DNA from: Promethearchaeota archaeon | GTDB lineage: Archaea > Asgardarchaeota > Thorarchaeia > Thorarchaeales > Thorarchaeaceae | Direction of reading: 5' to 3' | DNA length: 10,771 bases | Assembly (NCBI GenBank): GCA_048939765.1 | Contig: JBHLPF010000039.1 | Location: forward strand, 16,033-26,803 | Shown: positions 9,514 through 10,551 of the stretch, piece by piece | Numbering within the stretch: position 1 is the stretch's first letter | Layout of the letters: the number at the start of each line of letters is the position of its first letter | Position numbers and translations under genes: made by a program | Notes under the pieces: model-generated | The model's input: only the letters and a program-made list of their open reading frames with translations | Told to the model about the DNA's origin: nothing | Databases searched by the model: none

Positions 9514-10182
9514 TCAGAGATGTTTGCAAATATAGACTTGAGAATCATCATCAACTACAAATTCACCTTTTCTTTGGAAGAATCCCATTAACACCTCTTC
9601 ATGATGTTTATTCATATCTGTCGCATACTCTTCCTTCAATTCTCTTTGGAAACAACGCAAAATCTCTTCAAAATCAGCAAAATTGAGTTGTCCTTTGATT
9701 TGTTTCTTACTAAAAGAAAAATGGTTTGAAAGGATCTTCTCGAATTTGTTGTAAAAGGAAACTGATCTGACATTTTCCTCAACTAACAAATCAACTATTC
9801 TTTGATACTCACTAGTGGGAGAACTACAAATTAGAAGAGCTGTTCCATCATCTTCTAGATGTTTGGATATATTCTTGACTGCATTGGGTAGATTTCCTAG
9901 ATACATATAACCCACTCCAATTGTAAGAATCAGATCATACTTCCTTCCCAAATCAAAGTCTTCCATATCTTCAACAAGAAAGGTAACATTCCCATGCACA
10001 TTTCTTTGTTGGGCATCTCGAATCGTTTTCGCATCAATATCTATTGCAGTCAATTCCCGTACTCTATCTGCAAGAGCAAACGTTATTCTTCCTGTTCCGC
10101 ATCCTAATTCTAGAATGGATTTGTCTTTGATATCAACCAACTCAGTAATGTCCCTAATGCCCTTCTCAGTTTGTGAATTCAT
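9514..10182 (-). CDS. Class I SAM-dependent methyltransferase
   Basis: Motif I ILELGCGTGR, motif II TAIDID, and DMEDFDLGRKYDLI. Visibly more AT-rich than its neighbours. Confidence 0.92.
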   Translation of the reverse strand: MNSQTEKGIRDITELVDIKDKSILELGCGTGRITFALADRVRELTAIDIDAKTIRDAQQRNVHGNVTFLVEDMEDFDLGRKYDLILTIGVGYMYLGNLPNAVKNISKHLEDDGTALLICSSPTSEYQRIVDLLVEENVRSVSFYNKFEKILSNHFSFSKKQIKGQLNFADFEEILRCFQRELKEEYATDMNKHHEEVLMGFFQRKGEFVVDDDSQVYICKHL

Positions 10183-10215: not shown

Positions 10216-10255
10216 CTAATATGAAATTACAGAAGAAGTGGCGCCGCCGGCAGGG

Positions 10256-10285
10256 GCTTCGATTGACCTCGTACATAGGACAACC
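10256..10285 (-). other. tRNA intron 4 (30 nt, T-loop position 59/60)
   Basis: Perfect central helix TTCG/CGAA with bulges AG^G and GC^C; inner helix GTTG/CAAT. Confidence 0.88.
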
Positions 10286-10307
10286 CTCGAACCTGCGACC
10301 AACAACT

Positions 10308-10336
10308 GTCTGGCTCTCGATCACCTGACCGAAAGG
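10308..10336 (-). other. tRNA intron 3 (29 nt, canonical position 37/38)
   Basis: Central helix CTGT/CCAG (3 of 4 pairs) with bulges TA^C and AC^A; hairpin CTTTCGGTC/GATCGAGAG. Confidence 0.85.
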
Positions 10337-10345
10337 TAACAGGCT

Positions 10346-10376
10346 TTAGCGGCATGACGCAGTAGCGTACATTGCT
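10346..10376 (-). other. tRNA intron 2 (31 nt, position 28/29)
   Basis: Perfect central helix AGCG/CGCT with bulges AC^A and AA^A; internal hairpin ACGC/GCGT. Confidence 0.85.
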
Positions 10377-10382
10377 GTCGCT

Positions 10383-10413
10383 TTCGGTATACTGTTCCCG
10401 AGGAAACAGGATT
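10383..10413 (-). other. tRNA intron 1 (31 nt, position about 22/23)
   Basis: Internal hairpin CTGTTTC/GGAACAG; relaxed BHB with central helix AGGT/ACCG. An alternative register GGTA/TACC exists, so the exact junction is less certain. Confidence 0.75.
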
Positions 10414-10460
10414 CTACCTACTGAGCCACGGCGGCTGTTCGGCTTGGGTCGCGGGTTTCA

Positions 10461-10468
10461 ATATTAAC
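10461..10468 (-). promoter_or_regulatory. Putative TATA box of the tRNA gene
   Basis: Minus-strand GTTAATAT about 26-33 nt upstream of tRNA position 1. Confidence 0.55.
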
Positions 10469-10551
10469 ATTGCTGTTTGGGGTCACTGAAACATGGCTCA
10501 ATTGAAAACACTGAAATCACTCGAGCACACATTTCTTGATTGGAGATCTGG

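Follow-up and report, generated by a model that had tools for sequence, protein, structure and literature searches.

A tRNA-Asn(GTT) gene with four BHB introns in a Thorarchaeota genome and the intron map of its orthologues

Introduction

In 2021, three introns per gene was the stated maximum for archaeal tRNAs (PMC8450103). For Pyrobaculum calidifontis, 71 introns in 46 tRNA genes have been described (Sugahara et al., 2007/2008, as cited in PMC4090602 and PMC8450103). More recently, attention has turned to Asgard archaea. In complete genomes of Atabeyarchaeia and Freyarchaeia, 92-95% of tRNA genes are interrupted, and more than half are interrupted several times (2024, PMC11291895). A census of 90 Asgard genomes reported up to five inserts per gene, with a mean of 0.91 inserts per gene in 'other Asgard families'; many inserts lie in the D arm and are missed by tRNAscan-SE (Goswami et al., 2026, bioRxiv 10.64898/2026.10.13.758758). 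Asgard archaea possess an (alpha-beta)2 splicing endonuclease (EndA) with an L1 loop, and such EndA has been reported to cut relaxed motifs (PMC5829648).

Here we describe a tRNA-Asn gene with four introns in a 10,771-nt window (the whole stretch of contig DNA that was analysed) from a Thorarchaeota genome. The original prediction had placed four introns at or beyond the archaeal maximum. That view is outdated, as multi-intron Asgard genes were published in 2024 and genes with up to five inserts in 2026. It also fails within the gene's own family, where 13 of 60 tRNA-Asn genes carry four introns and two carry five. Heavily interrupted Asgard tRNA genes are already in print, and this gene adds one more.

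The locus resembles the Asgard genes of 2024 and 2026 in that each gene holds several protein-spliced introns, which are short (~20-30 nt) and often lie at non-canonical sites, the D arm among them. Further common traits are introns that annotation tools miss, up to five introns per gene, patchy gain and loss, and an (alpha-beta)2 EndA. It differs in coming from Thorarchaeota, a class named in neither main text. With the Thermoproteales genes, as described in PMC4090602 and PMC8450103, it shares BHB, HBh' and relaxed motifs, non-canonical sites including T-loop 59/60, close-set introns and a heterotetrameric EndA with a crenarchaeal-type loop. Thermoproteales belong to another phylum and have at most three introns per gene (PMC8450103), compared with four here and five in relatives. 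According to the same descriptions, related introns recur across genes in Thermoproteales, whereas the four introns of the present gene have no copy in their own genome. The red alga Cyanidioschyzon merolae likewise has several short introns at non-canonical positions in one tRNA gene, but in a eukaryotic nuclear genome and with a different endonuclease complex (PMC3728597).

Results

Gene layout and spliced product

The tRNA-Asn(GTT) gene occupies 197 nt on the minus strand (window 10435-10239). Its exons of 22, 6, 9, 22 and 17 nt are separated by introns of 31, 31, 29 and 30 nt at tRNA positions 22/23, 28/29, 37/38 and 59/60. The features are as follows, in the direction of transcription.

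10414..10435, minus strand: exon 1, tRNA positions 1-22 (acceptor 5' strand, D-stem 5' strand, D loop, G22)
10383..10413, minus strand: intron 1, 31 nt, at 22/23 in the D arm; relaxed motif
10377..10382, minus strand: exon 2, the 6-nt micro-exon AGCGAC, positions 23-28
10346..10376, minus strand: intron 2, 31 nt, at 28/29; HBh' type
10337..10345, minus strand: exon 3, the 9-nt micro-exon AGCCTGTTA, positions 29-37, including the anticodon GTT
10308..10336, minus strand: intron 3, 29 nt, at the canonical 37/38 site
10286..10307, minus strand: exon 4, positions 38-59 (anticodon-stem 3' strand, variable loop, T-stem 5' strand, T loop to G59)
10256..10285, minus strand: intron 4, 30 nt, at 59/60 in the T loop; strict hBHBh' motif
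10239..10255, minus strand: exon 5, positions 60-76 (C60, T-stem 3' strand, acceptor 3' strand, G73, CCA)

When the exons were joined, ARAGORN returned a perfect 76-nt tRNA-Asn(GTT) cloverleaf with discriminator G73 and an encoded CCA end; of the 34 tRNA genes that ARAGORN found in the source genome, 32 likewise encode CCA. A cloverleaf emerging on intron removal is far beyond chance. The exon/intron partition originally proposed was reproduced exactly, with the minus strand, previously unstated, now assigned; the 6-nt and 9-nt micro-exons are real, and every base in them is part of some splicing-motif element.

The junctions are also fixed from outside the gene. Locus L013, in a congeneric genome, is an uninterrupted 76-nt gene that deviates from the spliced product at a single D-loop base and at one T-stem pair, where the change is compensatory: C50:G64 of the source gene is G:C or U:A in the intronless genes L013 and L080. 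As these two genes match the spliced product over all junctions, the four junctions are determined independently of the motifs. Relative to these compact genes the source gene has four inserts, non-canonical sites included, and exon 1 has the same or almost the same sequence in orthologues. The cloverleaf, the intronless orthologues and the motifs described below bear out a genuine four-intron tRNA-Asn with BHB and relaxed-BHB introns.

Intron sites across the family

We used the 197-nt gene to search 41 related genomes and then an intronless orthologue to search 86 genomes of the same family, and found a tRNA-Asn orthologue in most of them. The compact copy was aligned to about 75 retrieved loci by a spliced-alignment script. 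Counts refer to 60 orthologues from 60 genomes and 16 genera of one Thorarchaeota family, in which six sites recur with 0-5 introns per gene. The numbers of orthologues with an intron at each site, and of genes with each number of introns, are given below.

Site 22/23: 21 of 60 orthologues
Site 28/29: 21 of 60 orthologues
Site 37/38: 47 of 60 orthologues
Site 43/44: 21 of 60 orthologues
Site 50/51: 10 of 60 orthologues
Site 59/60: 33 of 60 orthologues
No intron: 4 genes of 60
One intron: 7 genes of 60
Two introns: 18 genes of 60
Three introns: 16 genes of 60
Four introns: 13 genes of 60
Five introns: 2 genes of 60

The full range of 0-5 introns occurs within the genus of the source gene. Intron lengths are uniform at 26-34 nt, mostly 29-31 nt, at all six sites. 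The 22/23 intron of the source gene is 84% identical to those of two congeners and is absent from L013 and others. Its 28/29 intron shows 65-88% identity to most of the 20 other introns at that site (range 42-88%), and its 37/38 intron reaches 93% identity across genera; no relative's intron resembles its 59/60 intron above background. Introns at 37/38 and 28/29 are clearly homologous family-wide, unlike those at 59/60, which in 33 genomes are no more similar to one another than to introns of other sites (mean identity 0.54). This pattern suggests that 59/60 introns were gained repeatedly and independently or turn over very fast.

The two sites that are absent from the source gene, 43/44 and 50/51, carry introns of a single sequence family. 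Mean identity between these sites is 0.67 (maximum 0.83), which equals the level within each site, compared with 0.49-0.59 for other pairs of sites. Two genomes carry both introns, 7 nt apart. Examples of loci with this family are L139 (genome G073) and L114 (G077). The 3' end GGCT of this family pairs with AGUU (38-41) or GGUC (45-48) by means of G-U pairs. Judged by these similarities, the family looks like a case of intragenic intron copying or sliding.

Searching the source genome with blastn-short for second copies of its four introns gave only chance-level matches of 10-16 nt, which places these introns outside any within-genome intron family. The idea that the introns mark targets of integration or of a nuclease was dropped, as the junction-spanning mature-tRNA fragments amounted to one generic D-arm 13-mer.

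Two kinds of partial copy were seen in relatives. At locus L018 (G003:C16, about 176999-177080, plus strand), the 5' portion resembles tRNA-Asn and has the same 22/23 intron, the anticodon loop reads CTGTCAA, and both the T arm and the acceptor 3' strand are missing; a truncated pseudogene that arose by copying of DNA is the probable explanation. In L125 (G052) and L126 (G056), an exon-1-like fragment of 20 nt occurs some 150 nt upstream of a four-intron tRNA-Asn, before the promoter, and may be the remnant of a duplication or integration event.

Splicing enzymes of the source genome

The source genome carries two genes of the EndA family (PF01974), in the regions C71:38118-38372 and C37:124367-124627. 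One of the two encodes a protein with the Tyr/His/Lys residues whose alignment to the catalytic subunit in the Aeropyrum pernix heterotetramer (3P1Z_B, E=1e-44) is full-length and takes in the crenarchaeal-type loop region; the second paralogue is without the catalytic His. As judged from their sequences, the pair fits an (alpha-beta)2 enzyme with a crenarchaeal-type (L1) loop. A broad-specificity EndA had been anticipated, and an enzyme of that type is indeed encoded, the function of the loop being taken from PMC5829648. The ligase RtcB is also present (PF01139, 593 bits, open frame of 483 aa). A neighbouring M1 peptidase shows 74-87% identity to proteins of Candidatus Thorarchaeota MAGs, which places the DNA in the Asgard lineage.

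Splicing motifs of the four introns

Motifs were read in the BHB register, i.e., a four-pair central helix between exon p-5..p-2 and intron n-5..n-2, with 3-nt bulges cut after the second base. Intron 4 has a strict motif: the central helix UUCG/CGAA has all four pairs, the bulges are A58-G59-g and g-c-C60, the inner helix has 4 pairs and the outer helix is the 5-bp T stem. Intron 2 is of the HBh' type, with a perfect 4-bp central helix AGCG/CGCU, a 3-bp inner helix and no outer helix. Exon-2 bases 23-26 form this central helix, and bases 27-28 lie in the 5' bulge. Sequence alone would permit this intron anywhere from 28/29 to 31/32, and we placed it at 28/29 because the motif fixes the site. 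Introns 1 and 3 are relaxed, each with three of four central pairs. Intron 1 has the central helix GGU/ACC plus an A.G mismatch, a 5' bulge A21-G22-a, an inner 7-bp hairpin and a 2-bp outer helix. Intron 3 has CUG/CAG plus a U.C mismatch and a 9-bp inner hairpin; its outer helix is the anticodon stem, and the inner U.C mismatch is conserved in orthologues.

The orthologues show that these helices are maintained. Central pairs 2-4 were kept in 89-100% of distinct motif variants at 22/23, 28/29 and 59/60, and central pairs 1-3 in 100% of those at 37/38. At the first pair of the 22/23 motif, D-loop base 17 and intron base n-2 co-vary, giving C:G, U:A, A:U and G:C. These four pair types are direct evidence that the helix is under selection. 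Self-splicing introns of group I or II had no match in Rfam even at E<=10, and the inserts are just 29-31 nt long.

The weaker motif at 22/23 raises the question of whether some inserts in an otherwise functional gene leave by another route or at shifted sites. Intron 1 has three central pairs and a 2-bp outer helix that overlaps the intron-2 helix, and among the many D-arm inserts of Asgard genes without a canonical motif, none has been shown to be spliced (bioRxiv 10.64898/2026.10.13.758758). We nevertheless regard such a route as very unlikely, given that intronless and one-intron orthologues fix the 22/23 junction, the co-variation with base 17 maintains precisely this central helix, and its pair probability in the unconstrained fold is the highest of the four (0.82). 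In addition, EndA of the same type is reported to cut relaxed motifs (PMC5829648). Removal of all four introns by EndA is thus our preferred reading.

Precursor fold and order of splicing

The minimum-free-energy fold of the precursor contained the acceptor stem, the T stem and the hairpin of each intron. In the unconstrained fold, the central-helix pair probabilities of introns 1 to 4 were 0.82, 0.19, 0.00 and 0.09; three central helices are disfavoured there, so that motif formation would need enzyme-assisted refolding. Forcing all four central helices yielded one nested structure at -69.5 kcal/mol, 8.4 above the minimum of -77.9 kcal/mol. As this single structure holds all four, the motifs are compatible with one another.

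The overlapping or adjacent micro-exon bases of introns 1-3 had been taken as a hint of ordered splicing. The conflicts themselves exist. Introns 1 and 2 abut at A23: this base ends the 3' bulge of intron 1 and also belongs to the first pair of the intron-2 central helix. That helix is in turn in competition with the 2-bp outer helix of intron 1. A27 and C28 lie in the 5' bulge of intron 2 and also in the top two anticodon-stem pairs of the intron-3 outer helix. In its strictest form the suggestion would be an obligatory fixed order in which each removal creates the next motif, as described with tRNAscan-SE 2.0 for close-set introns where one must leave before the next motif forms (PMC8450103). 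We consider this strict form unlikely, since the single nested structure accommodates all four central helices and no motif relies on a helix that arises solely after another intron has been removed. Nearly every subset of sites also occurs among the orthologues, which indicates that each intron is spliceable without the others. The fold does not require a fixed order. Ordered splicing as such is plausible, and introns 1 and 2, which abut, are likely for steric reasons to be processed in succession.

Putative expression signals and neighbourhood

Three putative expression signals flank the gene.

10468..10476, minus strand: BRE-like element ACAGCAATG, directly upstream of the TATA-like box; presumed function
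10460..10467, minus strand: TATA-like box TTAATATT, at -32 to -25 from the mature 5' end
10223..10238, minus strand: T-rich trailer CTTCTTCTGTAATTTC, probable oligo-T termination region

The combined ACAGCAATG-TTAATATT element at -41 to -25 is kept upstream in the loci of 17 relatives, whatever their intron number, and the TATA-like box is nearly invariant in orthologous loci, the intronless L013 included. The position of the box points to a very short 5' leader. T-rich trailers follow tRNA-Asn in most orthologues, and oligo-T termination in the present trailer is probable. A scan for sigma-70 promoters and hairpin terminators, not meaningful for an archaeon, gave no hairpin terminator.

A gene for a SAM-dependent methyltransferase (window 9514-10182, minus strand) lies just downstream of tRNA-Asn. 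It was found beside tRNA-Asn in none of the 19 loci of relatives (L002-L020), including that of a relative whose four-intron gene is 80% identical. Since this neighbour is not shared, tRNA-Asn appears to sit in a variable neighbourhood.

Detection by annotation tools and copy number

The unspliced DNA received no call from ARAGORN, with or without intron mode, and no Rfam match at gathering scores or at E<=10. The suspicion that standard annotators would pass over the gene therefore proved correct for both ARAGORN and the Rfam tRNA model (RF00005). With RF00005, the intronless orthologues L013 and L080 scored 70-71 bits (L013, 70 bits) and a copy with the canonical intron alone 58 bits. Both tools missed L005, a one-intron version with the insert in the D arm, and a four-intron orthologue was likewise missed.

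We looked for a second tRNA-Asn in the 88.5%-complete source genome by ARAGORN, RF00005, BLAST and a 13-mer search and found none, so at this completeness the four-intron gene is the sole tRNA-Asn found. ARAGORN reported 34 tRNA genes and RF00005 30, several amino acids being absent. ARAGORN and the Rfam tRNA model thus leave the source genome without any tRNA-Asn, which makes inferences on completeness or codon usage drawn from tRNAs unreliable for such MAGs.

A heuristic tRNA census of the source genome, based on acceptor stem, CCA and T arm, recovered the known tRNAs and indicated five to six more genes with a T-loop intron; the procedure gives false positives and is blind to T-stem introns and to genes lacking CCA. 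The candidates, with T-loop inserts of about 30 nt, lie on the following contigs of the source genome (G000), and ARAGORN is silent on them or mis-calls them.

C12:2486-2592, plus strand: tRNA-like, T-loop insert (heuristic scan)
C12:23305-23452, minus strand: tRNA-like, T-loop insert (heuristic scan)
C37:32775-32906, plus strand: tRNA-like, T-loop insert (heuristic scan)
C64:54482-54597, plus strand: tRNA-like, T-loop insert (heuristic scan)
C78:52249-52355, plus strand: tRNA-like, T-loop insert (heuristic scan)
C76:4262-4368, plus strand: tRNA-Phe, mis-called by ARAGORN (heuristic scan)

A gene with four inserts could also be a decaying tRNA-Asn pseudogene, the working gene lying in the unassembled 11% of the genome. 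The incomplete assembly, the two imperfect motifs out of four, and the truncated tRNA-Asn-like copy in one relative (L018) would agree with decay. Its exons are intact and fold perfectly, however, with the compensatory T-stem change kept; the promoter element is conserved, and the motif helices are maintained with co-variation. Moreover, four-intron versions exist in 13 independent genomes, and most genomes show this single locus. We rejected the pseudogene reading on the intact exons, the conserved promoter and the maintained, co-varying motifs, and consider it hardly credible.

Discussion

We conclude that the locus is very probably a functional single-copy tRNA-Asn(GTT) gene with its own promoter, whose four BHB introns would be cut by (alpha-beta)2 EndA and whose exons would be joined by RtcB. 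The BRE/TATA-type promoter would give an almost leaderless precursor of about 197 nt with an encoded CCA end. The two-subunit crenarchaeal-type (alpha-beta)2 EndA is predicted to cut the BHB motifs at 22/23, 28/29, 37/38 and 59/60, and RtcB would then have to join five exons, two of them just 6 and 9 nt long. Introns 3 and 4 would be independent substrates, introns 1 and 2, abutting at A23, would probably be handled in turn, and once intron 2 is gone, the intron-3 outer helix would grow from 3 contiguous pairs to 5. Weighing against this conclusion are the 88.5% completeness of the genome, which leaves room for a second tRNA-Asn gene on unassembled DNA, the three of four central pairs in introns 1 and 3, and the unconstrained fold, which disfavours the central helices of introns 2 to 4. 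As far as the genes and motifs indicate, splicing would follow the ordinary archaeal EndA/RtcB pathway, with an unusually crowded precursor as its substrate.

With its clean and fully resolved structure, the gene exemplifies how extreme the layout of a tRNA gene can be in a prokaryote closely related to eukaryotes. What is new beyond the papers of 2024 and 2026 is a family-wide map for a single gene, tRNA-Asn, with six sites and 0-5 introns, the whole range occurring in one genus.

More tentatively, tRNA-Asn of Thorarchaeota could be a live natural experiment in intron turnover, including intragenic copying or sliding between 43/44 and 50/51; we hold this as a possibility on the doubtful side. 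If true, it would provide a concrete case of the 'route of arrival' that the 2026 Asgard census could not find, and the four-intron gene described here would be one snapshot of that turnover. The presence/absence map, with its six sites, 0-5 introns and intronless alleles within a genus, offers material for cleavage assays of Asgard EndA and serves the study of intron gain and loss.
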